The notes below the pieces were generated by a model. It searched no databases. It saw only the letters and a program-made list of their open reading frames with translations, and was not told where the DNA came from. A stretch of DNA of 2,574 nt. It comes from Escherichia coli. Lineage in GTDB: Bacteria > Pseudomonadota > Gammaproteobacteria > Enterobacterales > Enterobacteriaceae. Where the stretch lies: NCBI RefSeq assembly GCF_003334315.1, contig NZ_QOWR01000109.1; one strand, written 5' to 3'. Shown here piece after piece: positions 1-2,574 of this stretch. A program made the position numbers and the translations under genes. Position 1 is the first letter of the stretch; each line of letters begins with the position of its first letter.

Positions 1-61
1 TGTTTTTGTCATGTGAGTCACCTCTGACTGAGAGTTTACTCACTTAGCCGCGTGTCCACTA

Positions 62-397
62 TTGCTGGGTAAGATCAATCAGCTTCCCCCTACGGAAGAT
101 AATAAACAGCCTTCTTTTGATGTTCTTGATGATGATTGGGATGCGCCTTTGCCGTGGGAGACGGAAGAAACACCTGTTTCATCAAGTGAAAAGGTAGCTA
201 ATGATAAGGAGGATGTGTTAGAGAATTTTGCCTCTCTTATCATCCAGGAGAAGACTACTAGAACAGGAGGGGCATCATTTATAGAATTTGCAACATCGTT
301 AGCCTATAAGCACAGGTTAAAGCTACCAAATGGTATTGAGGCATATTTTTCTAAGAATTACCCAAATGTATACGAAGACTTTGATCTTCCCTTTTAA
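62..397 (+). CDS. Hypothetical acidic protein (111 aa) with an SSB-tail-like C-terminal tip ...YEDFDLPF; start codon uncertain
   Basis: Open frame from TTG at 62 to TAA at 395-397. An in-frame TGA at 29-31 rules out any start upstream of 62, and there is no in-frame ATG anywhere in the ORF. No clear SD precedes the TTG, so the start is uncertain; an in-frame GTG at 215 follows an AAGGAGG at 206-212 but the spacing is only 2 nt. The N-terminal half is strongly acidic and low-complexity (DVLDDDWDAPLPWETEE). The downstream gene's SD sits 5 nt after the stop, consistent with an operon. Confidence 0.5.
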   Translation: MLGKINQLPPTEDNKQPSFDVLDDDWDAPLPWETEETPVSSSEKVANDKEDVLENFASLIIQEKTTRTGGASFIEFATSLAYKHRLKLPNGIEAYFSKNYPNVYEDFDLPF

Positions 398-413
398 AAA
401 GTAAGGAGGACTA

Positions 414-692
414 TTGATCCAATATTTAGTAAAAAATCAAGTAGACAGAATTCAGTGTAATGACACAGGAAAACGCATCTACGAAACACTTGCTTACCTC
501 TATAAAGGAAAGCCAACACCGCTAAAATATAGCGATGTGTTACATCGAGCAGGGTGCTCTGAAGATGGTTTAAAATTCTGGCTTAGACAGCTATCAAATT
601 TCGGTGTTATAGAGATTAAAGAATTATCTTTCTCTACATTCAATCTCAAAAGACTAGACAGAGAAATAGACTTCATCTATTCCACTCTCTAA
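414..692 (+). CDS. Hypothetical small protein (92 aa), possibly helix-turn-helix or winged-helix DNA-binding
   Basis: TTG start at 414 is the first possible start after an in-frame TAA at 402-404, and is preceded by a consensus SD AAGGAGG at 403-409. The frame runs uninterrupted to TAA at 690-692. The segment YSDVLHRAGCSEDGLKFWLRQL has the spacing of a helix-turn-helix (A-G at the turn), but the assignment is by eye only. Confidence 0.65.
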   Translation: MIQYLVKNQVDRIQCNDTGKRIYETLAYLYKGKPTPLKYSDVLHRAGCSEDGLKFWLRQLSNFGVIEIKELSFSTFNLKRLDREIDFIYSTL

Positions 693-733
693 AATCTCTC
701 TATGTAATTAAAATATAAAAGGAAAACATTATT

Positions 734-850
734 ATGATAGTAGCTATGTATTGGTTATTGTTCTTTCTCACGTTAGAAACATACTTCGGGGTGTTTTCCT
801 TTAAAAGAAAAGGAAAAGTAAATGGCAAAAAGAAAAAACAACGTTGTTAA
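734..850 (+). CDS. Possible small hydrophobic peptide (38 aa): MIVAMYWLLFFLTLETYFGVFSFKRKGKVNGKKKKQRC
   Basis: ATG at 734 follows an AAAAGGA at 717-723 with 10-nt spacing. The peptide has a roughly 23-residue hydrophobic segment followed by a Lys/Arg-rich tail, and ends at TAA 848-850. It overlaps the 5' end of the 822-1232 CDS in another frame. It was read by hand and is below the ORF-track length cutoff; it could be a chance ORF in AT-rich DNA. Confidence 0.2.
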   Translation: MIVAMYWLLFFLTLETYFGVFSFKRKGKVNGKKKKQRC

Positions 851-1232
851 GAAAATCGGTGATTCAGCTTCTCTTCTAAGTAAACCTAAATCTCTTCTAA
901 GACGCAAAGACTTTAAAGAGCTAGTTACGCTCACCAAGCAAAATAGCGCCCCTGGCGAATGGAAAACAGAGATTATAGAACATTCTCCCTCTGTGCCTTG
1001 TGGAGATGAATATATCGCATTACAAGAAATCTTATCTTCAACACCTGGCGTATTCTGGAAACCTAGAAAAAGAAAAGAGTATATTGTTGACAGCTCTGAT
1101 CTACGCAAATACCAGATTTTAGGATTTGAAGATTATAACCACTATGTTGGTTATCTCGCCACCAATGGCCTAAATAATTTAGTTCCAGAATTCCAGATTT
1201 TAGATAATGCTGATCACTATGGAGACTTTTAA
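822..1232 (+). CDS. Hypothetical basic protein (136 aa), Lys/Arg-rich N-terminus
   Basis: ATG at 822 immediately follows an in-frame TAA at 819-821, with AGGA at 812-815 (6-nt spacing). The frame is open to TAA at 1230-1232. The N-terminus MAKRKNNVVKK...SLLRRKD is very basic; no family recognised. Confidence 0.65.
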   Translation: MAKRKNNVVKKIGDSASLLSKPKSLLRRKDFKELVTLTKQNSAPGEWKTEIIEHSPSVPCGDEYIALQEILSSTPGVFWKPRKRKEYIVDSSDLRKYQILGFEDYNHYVGYLATNGLNNLVPEFQILDNADHYGDF

Positions 1233-1233
1233 T

Positions 1234-1572
1234 ATGAACAAAAACACGTATGACACAATTTACTCACTAATTAATTATTATGAGGATGATTACCTCCTGC
1301 CTTTAAACCGCGCTGAACTTGAAGCATACAAAGAAAACACGCCAGCGGCACTAAATGAGGCGTTTAAACACTGGGATTTAGCTGTGAATGCCTTTGAGCA
1401 CCTCTCTAAGCGTGTAGAGATGCTCTGTAAGCGTGAGAACGCATATCTAACAGCGGATCAGATATGGAGTCTCTCAAACTGGATAGAAGGTATTGAATCG
1501 GACGTTCGCTATGTAGGGGATGGCCTTGTTGAACTCGCACAACGCTTAGGCGCTGCTATCACAGAAGAATAA
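1234..1572 (+). CDS. Hypothetical acidic, probably alpha-helical protein (113 aa from ATG 1234), translationally coupled to the upstream CDS
   Basis: The ORF track starts this frame at ATG 1207, but ATG 1234 is preferred: GGAG at 1221-1224 lies 9 nt upstream and the upstream gene's TAA (1230-1232) is 1 nt before this ATG, the classic coupling arrangement. ATG 1207 and ATG 1219 have no SD. Stop is TAA at 1570-1572. Protein from 1234 begins MNKNTYDTIYSLINYYEDDY... Confidence 0.6.
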   Translation: MNKNTYDTIYSLINYYEDDYLLPLNRAELEAYKENTPAALNEAFKHWDLAVNAFEHLSKRVEMLCKRENAYLTADQIWSLSNWIEGIESDVRYVGDGLVELAQRLGAAITEE

Positions 1573-1601
1573 AAAAAGCAACAAAAAAGTTGTAAAATAT
1601 C

Positions 1602-1630
1602 TTGACATTTCATATATTGTATGTTAATAT
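1602..1630 (+). promoter_or_regulatory. Sigma-A-type promoter: -35 TTGACA (1602-1607), 17-bp spacer, TGn-extended -10 TAATAT (1625-1630)
   Basis: Perfect -35 hexamer, a 5/6 match at -10 with TG at 1622-1623 in the extended -10 position, and optimal 17-bp spacing. An A-rich tract (1571-1590) sits where an UP element would be. Predicted transcription start is near 1637. Sequence inspection only. Confidence 0.6.
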
Positions 1631-1636
1631 AATTAT

Positions 1637-1839
1637 ATAGGGTGATTATTTTTCCTTTATTGGTTCGATATTAAAAATTCTTCTTGTCGTTAAAGGGGAG
1701 TAAAATCTCCGCTCCCCGCTTCTCCTCCTTAAGTAATACTGTGTCATTTACCTCTTTTTTCCTTTGTTATGCATACATCTTGGAGTGTGCATAACATAGG
1801 GTAATTACAAAGGCGGCTTTAAATGCTGCCTTTTATTTT
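1637..1839 (+). ncRNA. Putative structured 5' leader or small RNA (about 200 nt) running from the predicted start site to the terminator hairpin
   Basis: Bounded by the promoter at 1602-1630 and the hairpin plus U-tract at 1809-1839. It contains a G-rich block AAAGGGGAG (1692-1700) that can pair with any of three CU-rich blocks (1706-1710, 1712-1717, 1721-1727), and an imperfect 10-bp inverted repeat (1767-1776 with 1785-1794). No ORF with a credible SD lies inside. I could not match it to any riboswitch class from memory. Confidence 0.3.
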
Positions 1840-1851
1840 GCCCGTTATGCA
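1766..1851 (+). repeat. Three copies of the 8-mer GTTATGCA: 1766-1773 (+), 1788-1795 (inverted, TGCATAAC), 1844-1851 (+)
   Basis: Exact 8-bp matches read directly from the sequence. The first and second copies form an inverted repeat with a 14-bp spacer; the third lies between the terminator hairpin and the 1902 CDS. Candidate operator half-sites or RNA structural elements. Confidence 0.3.
1809..1839 (+). terminator. Intrinsic-terminator-like hairpin with U-tract (AAAGGCGGC-TTTAAAT-GCTGCCTTT then TATTTT)
   Basis: The GC-rich stem GGCGGC (1812-1817) pairs with GCTGCC (1825-1830) including one G-U pair, is extended by three A-U pairs, has a 7-nt loop, and is followed by TTTTATTTT (1831-1839). 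It sits 237 bp after the stop of the 1234-1572 CDS and 62 bp before the 1902 start, so it could terminate block A, attenuate readthrough into block B, or both. Confidence 0.55.
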
Positions 1852-1901
1852 ACTTAAAAGTTGTATTTCTTACTTTAAACAAGGTAACAAGGTTTATATA
1901 A

Positions 1902-2114
1902 ATGTTGTTCTTAAATGATAAAGAGCAAATCATCAAGTATCGAGATGAAATGCTGCGAATTACTCCACAAATTACCGAAATGGTAGCTAAATACGCTGGG
2001 TGTTCTGTCGAGGAAGTAGAAAGATGTGTTGAAAAATATTTTTCTCCTTCTTCTCCGTCTACACCTTCCCTTAATGAATTAATCAAATTAAAAGCTAAGG
2101 AGATTACTAAATGA
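1902..2114 (+). CDS. Hypothetical small protein (70 aa): N-terminal helical region with possible HTH, Ser/Pro-rich linker, Lys-rich C-terminal helix
   Basis: ATG at 1902 with AAGGT at 1888-1892 (9-nt spacing). The frame is open to TGA at 2112-2114, which overlaps the next start as ATGA. Contains ITEMVAKYAGCSVEEVERCVEKY, then SPSSPSTPS, then LNELIKLKAKEITK. No family recognised. Confidence 0.55.
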   Translation: MLFLNDKEQIIKYRDEMLRITPQITEMVAKYAGCSVEEVERCVEKYFSPSSPSTPSLNELIKLKAKEITK

Positions 2115-2473
2115 TTATTGATTTAGACACTCTGTTTCCAGTTCGAAAGACTTTCACAGATATTGTAAGTTATTGTACTGATCCGTTTGCCTCTGTAGAA
2201 AGCAAGGTTTTTGCTTCTCTTCCTGCTGATGTTGAATGCGGAGACTTGATCACCAGCACGGGCGCTAAATATGTATCAGGAGATGATATCTATGTTGTTA
2301 TGAGTGAATTTGTAACGGCTGGAGAAAACAAGCCTGTAGATGTTTTACGTAGCAATGCTGGCCTTGTGTGCATTAAAGCTGATGCGCTGAATGCTGTAAG
2401 TGAAGCAGCAAAAACAGCATTAATTAAAAAAGGCTTCCAGCTTGAAGGCTTCCACTCTGTTTTCACTTCTTAA
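2111..2473 (+). CDS. Hypothetical acidic protein (120 aa), translationally coupled to the upstream 70-aa CDS
   Basis: ATG at 2111 overlaps the upstream TGA (2112-2114) in an ATGA arrangement. AAGGAG at 2097-2102 gives 8-nt spacing. Open to TAA at 2471-2473. No family recognised. Confidence 0.6.
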   Translation: MIIDLDTLFPVRKTFTDIVSYCTDPFASVESKVFASLPADVECGDLITSTGAKYVSGDDIYVVMSEFVTAGENKPVDVLRSNAGLVCIKADALNAVSEAAKTALIKKGFQLEGFHSVFTS

Positions 2474-2492
2474 TAAAAGGAATAATAATAAA

Positions 2493-2574
2493 TGATTTGG
2501 ATTGGCCCCTATATTTCCATACACTTTTTATCACTTAACCCATTACTGGTTCGCCGCCGCAGATATTCCCGTGG
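2493..2574 (+). CDS. Possible 5' end of a further CDS, truncated by the window edge (MIWIGPYISIHFLSLNPLLVRRRRYSR...)
   Basis: ATG at 2493 follows AAAAGGA at 2476-2482 (10-nt spacing). The frame has no stop through the window end (27 codons). There is no terminator between 2473 and 2493, so it would be co-transcribed with block B. Low confidence because it is short and incomplete. Confidence 0.3.

Follow-up and report, generated by a model that had tools for sequence, protein, structure and literature searches.

What kind of element carries a tight run of small, unrecognised genes at this Escherichia coli locus? The window, by which we mean the whole 2,574-nt stretch analysed here, had been described in an initial annotation as a co-directional array of small ORFs with coupling and overlaps, and all seven plus-strand ORFs are found where they were placed (62-397, 414-692, 734-850, 822-1232, 1207/1234-1572, 1902-2114 and 2111-2473) with the spacing confirmed. 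The gap from 397 to 414 is 16 nt, the 38-aa ORF overlaps ORF3 by 29 nt, a single nucleotide separates ORF3 from ORF4 (start 1234), and ORF5 and ORF6 meet in an ATGA overlap at 2111-2114; a further ATG lies at 2492, 18 nt past ORF6. Sequence comparison indicates that the window holds 2.42 kb from the interior of a ~12.6-kb island, cut by two insertion sequences, with the following features.

1-77, minus strand: left end of IS3 (terminal inverted repeat, 5' UTR and first 4 orfA codons, ATGACAAAAACA)
78-2497: island segment, 2.42 kb
78-397, plus strand: last 106 codons of a Rep-like replication initiator (intact form 222 aa), cut by IS3
414-692, plus strand: ORF2, 92 aa, TTG start
734-850, plus strand: 38-aa hydrophobic peptide, MIVAMYWLLFFLTLETYFGVFSF then a basic tail, overlapping the ORF3 start
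822-1232, plus strand: ORF3, 136 aa, basic N-terminus, conserved core FWKPRKRKEY.VDSS.L.K.Q.LGF
1234-1572, plus strand: ORF4, 112 aa, start 1234 with GGAG 10 nt upstream
1578-1594, no strand: palindrome GCAAC-N6-GTTGTA just 5' of the -35, repeat family D8, candidate operator
1602-1630, plus strand: sigma-70-type promoter TTGACA-17-(TG)TAATAT, extended -10 TG, 10/12 consensus match
1637-1842, plus strand: predicted structured leader or short RNA of ~200 nt, transcript ends putative
1849-1865, no strand: second palindrome copy, GCAAC-TTAAAA-GTTGTA, between terminator and ORF5
1902-2114, plus strand: ORF5, 70 aa, first capsid-operon gene, HTH-like segment VAKYAGCSVEEVERCV, basic C-terminus
2111-2473, plus strand: ORF6, 120 aa, lambda gpD/SHP-like head decoration (cement) protein
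2492-2497, plus strand: first two codons (ATG ATT) of the major capsid gene, cut here by the IS2-like insertion
2498-2574, minus strand: right end of an IS2-like IS3-family element (transposase gene 3' end, stop near 2509)

The island and its boundaries

The IS elements at both ends of the window, which truncate the flanking genes, had been overlooked in the initial annotation. Bases 1-77 are 100% identical to IS3 in a related locus (L002), and CDS orientation places the transposase running leftward out of the window. Bases 2498-2574 show 91-93% identity to IS3-family elements on Serratia and Klebsiella plasmids and an 87% match in two further loci (L009 and L014). Similarity to 2792 plasmid records is confined to these window ends, as IS3-family elements, and both ends lie outside the ORF array. 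IS3 interrupts the Rep gene and the IS2-like element sits at codon 2 of the capsid gene; split in this way, the window copy of the island may be non-functional.

The intact island is GC-poor and spans 12,562 bp between attL and attR, which repeat 25 nt of the tRNA-Thr (thrW) 3' end in direct orientation. It encodes a tyrosine integrase, an HTH_36 Rep and a lambda-E-type major capsid protein (MCP), the gene for which lies immediately downstream of the window segment and is followed by genes for tape-measure-like and Dit-like proteins. Iterons (TACCCCTATCAA; 5 copies of family D2, one more in a D1 unit, plus three 21-mers) occupy an ORF-less gap upstream of Rep. The integrase, att repeats, thrW insertion and downstream capsid gene bear out the earlier proposal of a mobile element, as does a patchy distribution: only 303 of 5426 complete E. 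coli genomes carry close copies, and no copy lies on a plasmid. The island also occurs in Klebsiella, Citrobacter, Leclercia and Cronobacter, with a tRNA gene adjoining every time, and a second E. coli type, Klebsiella variicola, Leclercia and Cronobacter share the same compact gene order, with tRNA-Gly, tRNA-Leu or tRNA-Thr as the neighbour. Variable cargo sits elsewhere, for example between tRNA and recombinase (HNH, glycosyltransferase and EAL genes).

We compared the window with 13 relatives of 93-97% identity (14 copies in all). Five ORFs (92, 136, 112, 70 and 120 aa) are under purifying selection: ORF substitutions fall mostly at third codon positions, and dN/dS is 0.20 for ORF2, 0.13 for ORF3, 0.19 for ORF4, 0.34 for ORF5 and 0.08 for ORF6. 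Minus-strand ORFs at 773-1108, 1805-2086 and 2290-2466 give values of ~0.5, and another at 500-676 gives 0.18, no higher than the genuine genes. Syntenic homologues of all five ORFs (ORF2 to ORF6) are present in other genera, and the window ORFs belong to a syntenic, conserved island core extending across at least five genera.

This conservation bears on whether the region is merely the decaying remnant of an ordinary prophage, its small ORFs being leftover early genes without present function. Such decay would fit the splitting of the window copy by two IS elements, the IS3 inside ORF6 in another strain, the recording of such loci in IMG/VR as proviral contigs and the lack of most virion genes. 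It is nevertheless very improbable given that at least five genera, using at least three different tRNA sites, share one minimal gene set and order (54-97% protein identity), with intact ORFs (dN/dS 0.08-0.34) and the element's own iterons and Rep; random decay is not expected to yield one shared 12-kb architecture. Nor is this the prophage region that had been suggested, at least of the ordinary kind: portal, terminase, protease, sheath, tube and lysis genes were not found in the island, nor was any virion gene beyond the few described here.

Rep remnant and putative early genes

The left part of the segment (78-1572) may form a replication and early module, comprising the C-terminal half of Rep, ORF2, the 38-aa peptide, ORF3 and ORF4. 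We rejected the ORF at 62-397 as a gene because its TTG lies in the IS3 terminal repeat and the rest, 78-397, is truncated Rep. The alternative TTG starts previously proposed thus survive for ORF2 but not for this ORF, which is an IS3 end fused to a Rep remnant. The remnant aligns to 15001-15320 of a related locus (L001), within CDS 14652-15320, and has a dN/dS of 0.24. The intact protein matches HTH_36 and replication-initiator PHROGs; the part retained here is the satellite-specific C-terminal half, and comparison of C-termini reveals a terminal EDFDLPF resembling the SSB C-terminal tail. This half would presumably recruit the replisome.

The ORF2 reading frame is intact in 14/14 copies. Its TTG start is genuine: 5/14 close copies use it, as do Leclercia and Cronobacter, and the remainder have ATG. 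In Klebsiella, Leclercia, Cronobacter and the thiM mini-islands a homologue comes after Rep, and matches to wHTH regulators are weak and non-significant (PefI, E 0.015); ORF2 is probably a winged-helix DNA-binding protein paired with Rep. The 38-aa ORF, missing from the RefSeq annotation, is likewise intact in all 14 close copies, one with an in-frame 3-nt insertion, and Klebsiella, Leclercia, Cronobacter and the second E. coli type have a 31-36 aa 'MIxAxxWL...' ORF at the equivalent position. Its product is a conserved membrane peptide.

ORF3 falls into 653 clusters at 90% identity, the named ones all from Enterobacteriaceae and all 'hypothetical' without Pfam domains; it had no match in Pfam, PHROG, NCBIfam, PADLOC or PDB. 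ORF4 is predicted to be helical or coiled-coil: its syntenic homologues share 29-33% identity, and its matches are generic designed or coiled-coil helical proteins only. Profile and structure database searches returned no significant match to proteins of known function for ORF2 to ORF5 or the peptide. Going by position, ORF3 and ORF4 are the foremost candidates for a role in regulation or helper takeover.

Promoter, leader and capsid genes

The right part of the segment (1578-2497) would be the head of a morphogenetic operon, ordered as a promoter flanked by two palindromes, a ~200-nt terminated leader, ORF5, ORF6 and the capsid gene. The strong internal promoter noted earlier, at 1602-1630, proved to be conserved. 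It is the sole 10/12 consensus match in the window, its hexamers are invariant across the 14 copies, and 10 of the 12 relatives scanned have an equivalent 10-11/12 promoter there; it is the candidate capsid operon promoter. The palindrome at 1578-1594 is kept in 13/14 copies, and inspection by eye finds a type-specific palindrome at the equivalent place in 4 of 5 leader types.

Among the long features of the window, intergenic region 1573-1901 varies least (7.6% variable columns). Its leader has a predicted MFE of -59.8 kcal/mol (z = -5.2), with predicted hairpins at about 1695-1717 and 1766-1795 and a predicted intrinsic terminator (stem 1809-1833 plus U-tract). The sole covariation for the window's own RNA is one-sided, G1787A, converting a U.G pair to U-A. 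The leader (1637-1842) matches no Rfam family, and leaders of this type could not be aligned with those of other types. Relatives repeat the layout of promoter, long structured leader and terminator, and in one of them (L020; z = -7.9) compensatory double changes affect 10 of 135 predicted pairs.

The late genes of lambda are arranged as PR'-6S RNA-tR' with Q antitermination, and in P4 late or immunity transcription is controlled by premature termination in the leader after a constitutive promoter. The island resembles lambda PR' in its strong promoter, predicted short terminated transcript of ~200 nt and following morphogenetic operon, but no Q-like protein or qut site was identified in it. 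The leaders of relatives are 560-750 nt long and highly structured, so that an RNA-based or helper-encoded mechanism is equally possible.

ORF5 is intact in 14/14 copies and has homologues of 44-45% identity at the same position, with no significant Pfam or PDB match. ORF6, translationally coupled to it through the ATGA overlap, is a capsid decoration protein and has the fold of that class. It lies directly 5' of a Phage_cap_E MCP gene, as in rV5-like and Otagovirus phages. Identity to lambda gpD, phage 21 SHP and the Sf14, PhiTE and Bas63 decoration proteins is only 5-22%, and it went unrecognised by Pfam, PHROGs and NCBIfam. Unlike those phage proteins, ORF6 is encoded by a non-autonomous island. 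In another strain an IS3 is inserted within it. The intact capsid protein has 342 aa (Pfam Phage_cap_E, PF03864, in relatives) and only 22-26% identity to known phage MCPs; the L001 capsid CDS (17411-18439) aligns from window position 2492, and identity ends at 2497.

These assignments count against the initial view of the ORFs as accessory cargo of a prophage or integrative element, serving anti-defence, superinfection exclusion or host takeover. The ORFs do encode small, unannotated proteins, all read in one direction within a GC-poor mobile element, and the membrane peptide, ORF3 and ORF4 could act on host or helper. Cargo is still a highly unlikely description of genes that are core, syntenic and conserved in every family member examined, among which ORF6 is structural and the first ORF is part of Rep. 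The window ORFs gave no defence or anti-defence matches, PADLOC included, and the variable cargo lies elsewhere in these islands.

A putative satellite of phi92-like phages

Several genes link the island to phi92-like phages. Its Dit-like protein shares 64% identity with phi92 gp135 (E 1e-97). Its tape-measure-like protein matches phrog_16051 (3e-51) and has ~35% identity to the tape measures of phi92 and Phapecoctavirus, and the order small gene, tape measure, Dit-like matches phi92 gp133-gp134-gp135. A 413-bp stretch (the Rep upstream region and first 123 codons) is 97% identical to Justusliebigvirus muut. In phage proteins muut gp094 and Mt1B1_P17 gp053, two Rep-type HTH_36 domains, ~100% and ~80% identical to two island Rep types, are combined with a MUG113/T5orf172-type nuclease domain.

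ICP1 Odn destroys the origin of the PLE satellite (PMC8263062), and the two phage proteins have its architecture, in which a nuclease of the GIY-YIG superfamily is joined to a DNA-binding domain copied from the satellite initiator. The nuclease of the island-linked phages differs in having two tandem DNA-binding domains. It is conceivable that the two genes encode ordinary homing endonucleases, sharing the domain by chance recombination. The island further resembles PLE as a chromosomal island with an integrase and a non-coding iteron origin (PMC8263062), in an initiator that joins a swappable DNA-binding domain to a conserved C-terminal half, and in its virulent myovirus helper, presumed in the case of the island. 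There is no sequence homology between island and PLE genes, however, and the initiators differ (HTH_36 versus RepA_N); PLE remodels stolen ICP1 coat protein, whereas the island encodes capsid, decoration, tape-measure-like and Dit-like proteins.

The cf-PICIs are Enterobacteriaceae satellites whose capsid consists of an HK97-fold MCP that they encode themselves, the remaining virion parts coming from a helper (PMC10085698), as is proposed for the island. They encode portal, protease, head-tail adaptor and connector and terminase subunits, stealing tails only, whereas the island lacks those head and packaging genes and has tail genes (tape-measure-like and Dit-like); the regulation and replication genes are also unlike. 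P4-like elements are comparable in size (about 11-12 kb), tRNA integration and Enterobacteriaceae hosts, but the island has no homologue of Psu, Delta, Sid, alpha primase-helicase, epsilon or AlpA, and P4 itself lacks a capsid protein gene and uses the temperate phage P2 as helper.

The partial structural gene set could be taken to mean that the island is an anti-phage defence element, whose diverged capsid, decoration, tape-measure and Dit proteins, produced upon infection, poison phi92-like assembly as dominant-negative decoys without packaging. Distances to the helper genes are uneven (Dit 64%, tape measure 35%, MCP about 22%), the island yielded no packaging determinant (terS, cos or pac), and the Odn-like phage nuclease suggests that islands exert pressure on phages. 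We consider pure defence unlikely: an own integrase, att sites, Rep and iterons, together with varied tRNA sites across several genera, indicate horizontal mobility, the MCP and gpD-like module under strong purifying selection (dN/dS 0.08) exceeds what decoys need, and no PADLOC model matched. Since PLE and SaPI satellites both interfere and transfer, decoy and satellite functions are not exclusive.

We favour, with a probability of about 0.68, an undescribed family of self-replicating, tRNA-integrating Enterobacteriaceae satellites that parasitise virulent phi92-like myoviruses (Stephanstirmvirinae). In uninduced cells such an island would be integrated and silent, its capsid-operon transcripts halting at the leader terminator. 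Infection by the helper would lead to excision, Rep/iteron replication and either read-through into the operon or its activation. The decorated capsid would then be the island's own, as would the tape-measure and Dit proteins, and the helper would provide portal, terminase, sheath, tube and lysis functions.

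The window as a cut piece of a tRNA-associated island

The best-supported reading of the window is that it represents a piece, cut by insertion sequences, of a satellite-like island of phi92-like virulent phages, and that its small ORFs are the island's conserved replication and early module together with the start of its capsid operon.

Features of the window
1-77, left end of IS3, 100% identical to the IS3 copy in the E. coli locus L002
78-2497, island segment, GC 30-43%, 93-97% identical to an E. coli chromosomal segment
78-397, + strand, remnant of the Rep gene
414-692, + strand, ORF2
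734-850, + strand, 38-aa peptide
822-1232, + strand, ORF3
1234-1572, + strand, ORF4
1578-1594, palindrome GCAAC-N6-GTTGTA, copy 1
1602-1630, + strand, promoter TTGACA-17-TGnTAATAT
1637-1842, predicted leader of ~200 nt with two hairpins and an intrinsic terminator, z = -5.2 against shuffled controls
1809-1833, the intrinsic terminator, with its U-tract following
1849-1865, palindrome GCAAC-N6-GTTGTA, copy 2, upstream of ORF5
1902-2114, + strand, ORF5
2111-2473, + strand, ORF6
2498-2574, IS2-like element of the IS3 family, right end, matching IS3-family copies elsewhere at 87-93% identity

Both ends of the window are IS3-family termini, as judged from terminal identity and an adjoining transposase gene. 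At the left end the start of IS3 orfA is the reverse complement of bases 1-12 (orfA start at window 12), and the transposase reads leftward, out of the window. At the right end the IS2-like transposase gene has its 3' end on the minus strand, with its stop near 2509, ~11 nt inside the element end. The window 5' end is not an SRP-like or tmRNA-like RNA, the sequence being that of the IS3 end, and the window contains neither a tRNA gene (ARAGORN) nor an Rfam family (no match at E <= 1). A composite transposon is likewise rejected, as the flanking elements differ (IS3 versus IS2-like). Thousands of plasmids match the window at its two ends only, as IS3-family elements. The island segment between them is never found on plasmids and is present in only 303 of 5426 complete E. 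coli genomes (~5.6%), the carriers including O26, O111 and O103 STEC strains. The copy in the window is probably inactive, unless the missing gene halves sit just past the IS elements. In E. coli OkiPb01688 and related bovine strains (L026:11021-12644) an independent IS3 insertion splits the ORF6 homologue, so that IS3 has hit the AT-rich island more than once.

An intact copy is present in E. coli E400634 (L001), where the segment lies within a 12,562-bp island between 25-nt direct repeats of the tRNA-Thr(CGU) 3' end.

Parts of the intact island in E. coli E400634, in order
1, small serine recombinase, opposite strand
2, ~2 kb without ORFs, holding the iterons
3, two genes of ~60 aa
4, Rep-like initiator, 222 aa, matching Pfam HTH_36 and PHROGs 'replication initiation' families at ~1e-10
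5, the genes of the window
6, major capsid protein (MCP), 342 aa, phrog_29, with Pfam Phage_cap_E in relatives
7, 67-aa gene
8, tape-measure-like protein, 611 aa, phrog_16051, 3e-51
9, Dit_like protein, 238 aa
10, tyrosine integrase with a DUF6538 domain

The initial annotation had seen in the window a prophage or mobile-element accessory region, for which an integrase, att sites, a tRNA insertion point and phage structural genes should lie in the flanks and presence should vary between related strains. The tyrosine integrase and 25-nt tRNA-Thr repeat of the intact island, the capsid, tape-measure-like and Dit_like genes downstream, and the restricted distribution among E. coli genomes all agree with that view as regards mobility.

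A second E. coli island type shows this gene order too, as do Klebsiella variicola, Leclercia adecarboxylata and Cronobacter sakazakii, in each case beside tRNA-Gly(CCC), tRNA-Leu(CAA) or tRNA-Thr, and the island is also carried by Citrobacter and Enterobacter. A profile search of genome contigs returned five loci. A copy 90% identical to that of E. coli SCPM-O-B-8794 is found in a contig labeled 'MAG: Bacillota bacterium' (L032, JAEWTL010000083.1), a label that probably reflects MAG mis-binning or contamination.

An ORF-less gap of similar size is common to all family members. In the intact island it contains iterons, TACCCCTATCAA, in five copies by repeat family D2 plus one more inside a D1 unit, with a spacing of ~18-24 bp, and a second repeat set of three 21-mers (both within L001:12728-13002). 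This ~2-kb stretch, with the recombinase on one side and the small genes that precede Rep on the other, is likely the replication origin. A blastn comparison of the region with phages gave nothing meaningful, leaving the idea that the island origin mimics a phage origin unsupported.

Two related E. coli mini-islands of ~6.7-7.7 kb lie between rcnR and thiM (L002 and L003), at the thiM TPP riboswitch, which is present in duplicate, at both ends of the insert. They contain an integrase, recombinase, origin gap and Rep and no structural genes, L003 having in addition an HNH gene and ORF2; what they share with the full island is limited to the recombinase, origin, Rep and ORF2 part.

The full 12.6-kb island contains no portal, terminase, protease, sheath, tube or lysis gene, and its virion genes are confined to those for the MCP, decoration, tape-measure-like and Dit-like proteins. 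It thus combines an integrase and its own replication module with an incomplete virion set, which is the composition of a satellite.

Coding status of the window genes and the assignment of ORF6

The seven + strand ORFs of the initial annotation, with their tight spacing, overlaps and strong internal promoter, are all present as described. One of them, ORF 62-397, is nonetheless an artefact as a gene, since its TTG start lies inside the IS3 inverted repeat and 78-397 is the last 106 codons of the 222-aa Rep gene. The proposal of alternative TTG starts consequently fails for this ORF but holds for ORF2, where the TTG is genuine and recurs in several lineages.

Coding potential was assessed from an alignment of the window with 13 close relatives. 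Substitutions in the ORF2-ORF6 frames fall mostly at third codon positions, with dN/dS values of 0.20 (ORF2), 0.13 (ORF3), 0.19 (ORF4), 0.34 (ORF5) and 0.08 (ORF6, the most constrained gene of the window); three of the minus-strand ORFs gave ~0.5 and the fourth (500-676) 0.18. ORF2 to ORF6 are intact in every copy aligned, and the positions of all five are conserved across island types. Searches of the window ORFs against PHROGs, NCBIfam, Pfam and PADLOC produced no significant match, tblastn of concatenated ORF2-ORF6 against 50,697 phage records produced nothing at E <= 1, and PDB sequence searches with ORF2-ORF6 profiles returned only generic wHTH or coiled-coil noise. ORF2 appears wHTH-like, a faint resemblance from which a role can be suggested only tentatively. 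ORF3 falls among 653 clusters, all hypothetical, ORF4 is helical and ORF5 has an HTH-like segment; any role for these proteins, as for the 38-aa peptide, would be presumptive. The possibility that ORF5 mimics the C-terminus of a helper scaffold, in the manner of SaPI CpmB, finds little support, the scaffold C-termini of JES2013 and PN09 resembling it by a vague basic helix only.

Substitution counts alone gave a doubtful coding signal for the 38-aa ORF (734-850). An ORF of 31-39 aa starting MIxAxx(W)L is, however, found at the equivalent position in Klebsiella, Leclercia, Cronobacter and the second E. coli island type, and indeed in every island type examined, each homologue consisting of one hydrophobic helix and a basic tail and overlapping the start of the ORF3 homologue. 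Because position and layout recur in this way across genera and in the second E. coli type, we conclude from these comparisons that 734-850 encodes a real small membrane peptide. It is unannotated in the RefSeq record of the intact island; the gene caller did call its counterpart in the Leclercia locus L023.

Direct family searches with ORF6 (Pfam, PHROG, PDB sequence) gave no match. When an ORF6 profile built from 24 homologues was searched against 1.84 billion representative proteins, it recovered two distant members, P0112 (E 9e-7) and P0113 (E 2e-6), which themselves match phrog_2680 'head decoration' (1.7e-5 and 7e-4), so that the link of ORF6 to this family is transitive. A broadened ORF6 alignment aligns over 98 columns with ORF59, the decoration protein of the rV5-like phage JES2013 (hhalign P 8.9e-5, probability 60%), the gene for which is directly upstream of the phage capsid gene. 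The AF2 model of ORF6 has a pLDDT of 50 with a shallow alignment and 86 once distant homologues are added. Capsid decoration or cement proteins make up all of its best structural matches, the top seven Foldseek matches (Sf14, PhiTE, Bas63) having probability 1.0 and TM-scores of 0.49-0.66, with phage 21 SHP also matched (probability 0.95), and as modeled the protein fits a gpD-like fold of about 110-145 aa. In all intact relatives the gene after ORF6 encodes a 342-344 aa Phage_cap_E protein (PF03864, the lambda-E-type MCP); of this gene just the first two codons remain in the window. On its predicted fold, ORF6 is a lambda gpD/SHP-type head decoration protein. This fold and the strongest constraint in the window identify ORF5-ORF6-MCP as a putative head module sharing the gene arrangement of the lambda D-E pair.

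The non-coding cassette ahead of the capsid operon

Among the long features of the window the interval 1573-1901 varies least: 7.6% of its columns are variable, compared with 9-17% in the genes. The two copies of the palindrome, 271 bp apart, bracket the promoter, leader and terminator, and a dimeric regulator could loop them together. From the terminator to ORF5 no sigma-70-like promoter was detected. Within the leader, G1787A in relatives converts a U.G pair to U-A, the single such substitution.

Leaders of the other island types are unalignable to that of the window except for short motifs, yet their layout is the same: a near-consensus promoter in each, with a type-specific palindrome just upstream in four of the five, followed by 560-750 nt of structured sequence and a terminator ahead of the ORF5 homologue. 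Leaders of 560-600 nt are seen in the Klebsiella, Cronobacter and Citrobacter islands (L020:9136-9740, L024:9138-9715 and L033:9184-9745). The Klebsiella leader has z = -7.9, a three-genus leader alignment shows compensatory double changes at 10 of 135 predicted pairs, and the L018, L020 and L024 leaders have no Rfam match. Because of this combination of stable fold, compensatory pairs and absence from Rfam, the Klebsiella/Cronobacter/Citrobacter leader may be a new large structured RNA.

The window leader carries CUUCUCCUCCUUAAG (1719-1733), within which CUCCUCCUUA resembles the anti-Shine-Dalgarno end of 16S rRNA and is complementary to the strong ORF2 RBS UAAGGAGGA (404-412). This complementarity could be chance or could signify RBS sequestration in trans. 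Relatives likewise have CU-rich runs in their leaders. Action of the leader as an antisense RNA against the helper was rejected, blastn of 1573-1901 against phages giving chance-level matches only.

We infer that the leader is the point at which capsid-operon transcription is gated. Gating might operate by antiterminator read-through, by helper-induced activation acting through the palindromes, or by an RNA-based switch. The logic would be similar to that of lambda PR'-6S-tR' and the P4 leader; no component of either was found in the island.

Relationship to phi92-like phages and to known satellites

The structural proteins of the island point to phi92-like phages. Its Dit-like protein has 64% identity to phi92 gp135 (E 1e-97), the order small gene, tape-measure, Dit is that of phi92 gp133-gp134-gp135, and the tape-measure-like protein has ~35% identity to its phi92 and Phapecoctavirus counterparts. 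The capsid and decoration proteins fall within the rV5, FelixO1, phi92 structural supergroup.

A megablast comparison of the whole island with phages identified 413 bp of Justusliebigvirus muut that are 97% identical to the island and cover the Rep upstream region and Rep codons 1-123. Residues 1-123 of the phage protein, muut gp094 (YP_009985769.1, L035:2545-3543), are essentially identical to the window-type Rep's DNA-binding domain. Two Rep-type HTH_36 domains stand in tandem in the protein, with ~100% and ~80% identity to those of two different island Rep types, and are followed by a C-terminal nuclease domain of the MUG113/T5orf172 type (GIY-YIG superfamily); gp053 of Phapecoctavirus Mt1B1_P17 (L036:1542-2528) shares this domain plan, except that its first domain differs. 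The ICP1 nuclease Odn similarly joins a T5orf172 nuclease to a domain that shares 42% identity with PLE RepA_N, and cleaves the PLE origin at its iterons (PMC8263062). From this domain composition muut gp094 and Mt1B1_P17 gp053 are apparent analogues of Odn, with two 'warheads'.

Identity between muut and the island stops at ...PDQLPPTE, which is the Rep domain boundary, and island sequence in the window starts at this same point. What the window retains of Rep is thus its satellite-specific C-terminal half. This half parallels the C-terminal domain of PLE RepA, which is conserved and presumed to recruit the replisome. Comparison of five Rep types (L001, L003, L018, L023, L024) identifies an acidic C-terminal (I/L/T)PF motif, which is SSB-tail-like in four of the five (DDFDIPF, EEDDFDIPF, YDSIPF, FSLPF), with FGTPF also among the termini, and the window's own fragment ends EDFDLPF (377-397). 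The C-terminal tail of E. coli SSB is DFDDDIPF, and the Rep motif suggests recruitment of SSB-binding replisome proteins.

The 42-49 bp directly upstream of the Rep start codon (L001:14611-14659) are 94-98% identical to phage sequence, one match lying upstream of the Phapecoctavirus Mt1B1_P17 nuclease gene and the other in an unannotated stretch of phage BI-EHEC. Because of this near-identity, the island Rep may use a phage-type expression signal.

The island lacks the defining features of P4-like elements, PICIs, cf-PICIs and PLEs alike, as SatelliteFinder lists them (PMC10085698). P4-like satellites are defined in SatelliteFinder by a Psu-Delta-Sid operon, alpha primase-helicase, epsilon/Ash and AlpA (PMC10085698); Pfam and PHROGs searches of the window and island proteins gave no match to any of these, and the island Rep, a wHTH protein of 222 aa, has neither a primase nor a helicase domain. 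PICIs possess int, an alpA/stl/merR regulator, pri-rep, a capsid-morphogenesis gene and terS, with tail genes forbidden (PMC10085698), whereas the island has no AlpA, primase/pri-rep or TerS match and carries forbidden tail genes (tape-measure-like and Dit_like). The cf-PICIs combine an MCP with portal, protease, head-tail adaptor, connector and terminase (PMC10085698); the island shares with them only the possession of its own capsid, its MCP being of a different family (Phage_cap_E) and the other components absent from the 12.6 kb. The defining traits of PLEs are an initiator of the RepA_N type, the PLE core genes, a Vibrio cholerae host and ICP1 as helper. The island differs in its HTH_36 initiator, in showing no PLE homologues and in its Enterobacteriaceae hosts, but PLE is the closest in working, a purely functional likeness comprising a presumed virulent myovirus helper, a modular Rep with iterons and an Odn-like phage counter-measure.

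Searches of the full-text literature outside subscription-only papers found no paper on this island or on any satellite of phi92-like phages, and we rate the island family as a putative new satellite family. Gene exchange with phi92-like phages and the Odn-like phage nuclease hint, indirectly, at helper-dependent induction, packaging and transfer. The most far-reaching interpretation, to which we assign slightly less than even odds (about 0.45), is that these islands are undescribed Enterobacteriaceae satellites of virulent phi92-like (Stephanstirmvirinae) phages, equipped with capsid, decoration, tape-measure and Dit proteins of their own. Satellites and phages would be engaged in an arms race of the PLE/ICP1 kind, the phages wielding 'double-warhead' Odn-like nucleases built from captured Rep DNA-binding domains. 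ORF3, ORF4, ORF5 and the 38-aa peptide would then be helper-takeover, regulatory or packaging factors, and the promoter-leader-terminator cassette a new helper-sensing switch of the capsid operon.

For annotation, the analysis gives context to five 'hypothetical proteins' and a function, that of decoration protein, to one of them, and it adds a conserved 38-aa gene absent from RefSeq. To our knowledge, detailed knowledge of satellites with strictly virulent helpers comes only from Vibrio PLE/ICP1, with marine PICMIs as a second case, and the interpretation, if true, would provide an equivalent system in the genetically tractable E. coli. It would make testable how a 12-kb element makes a capsid and influences tail assembly with only four structural genes, how phage origin-directed nucleases evolve by capture of satellite domains, and how a structured leader RNA gates a morphogenetic operon. 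The system would involve phages under consideration for therapy, namely phi92, phAPEC8 and rV5 relatives. Since ~5.6% of complete E. coli genomes, STEC strains included, carry the island, it may affect the host range of phi92-like phages.
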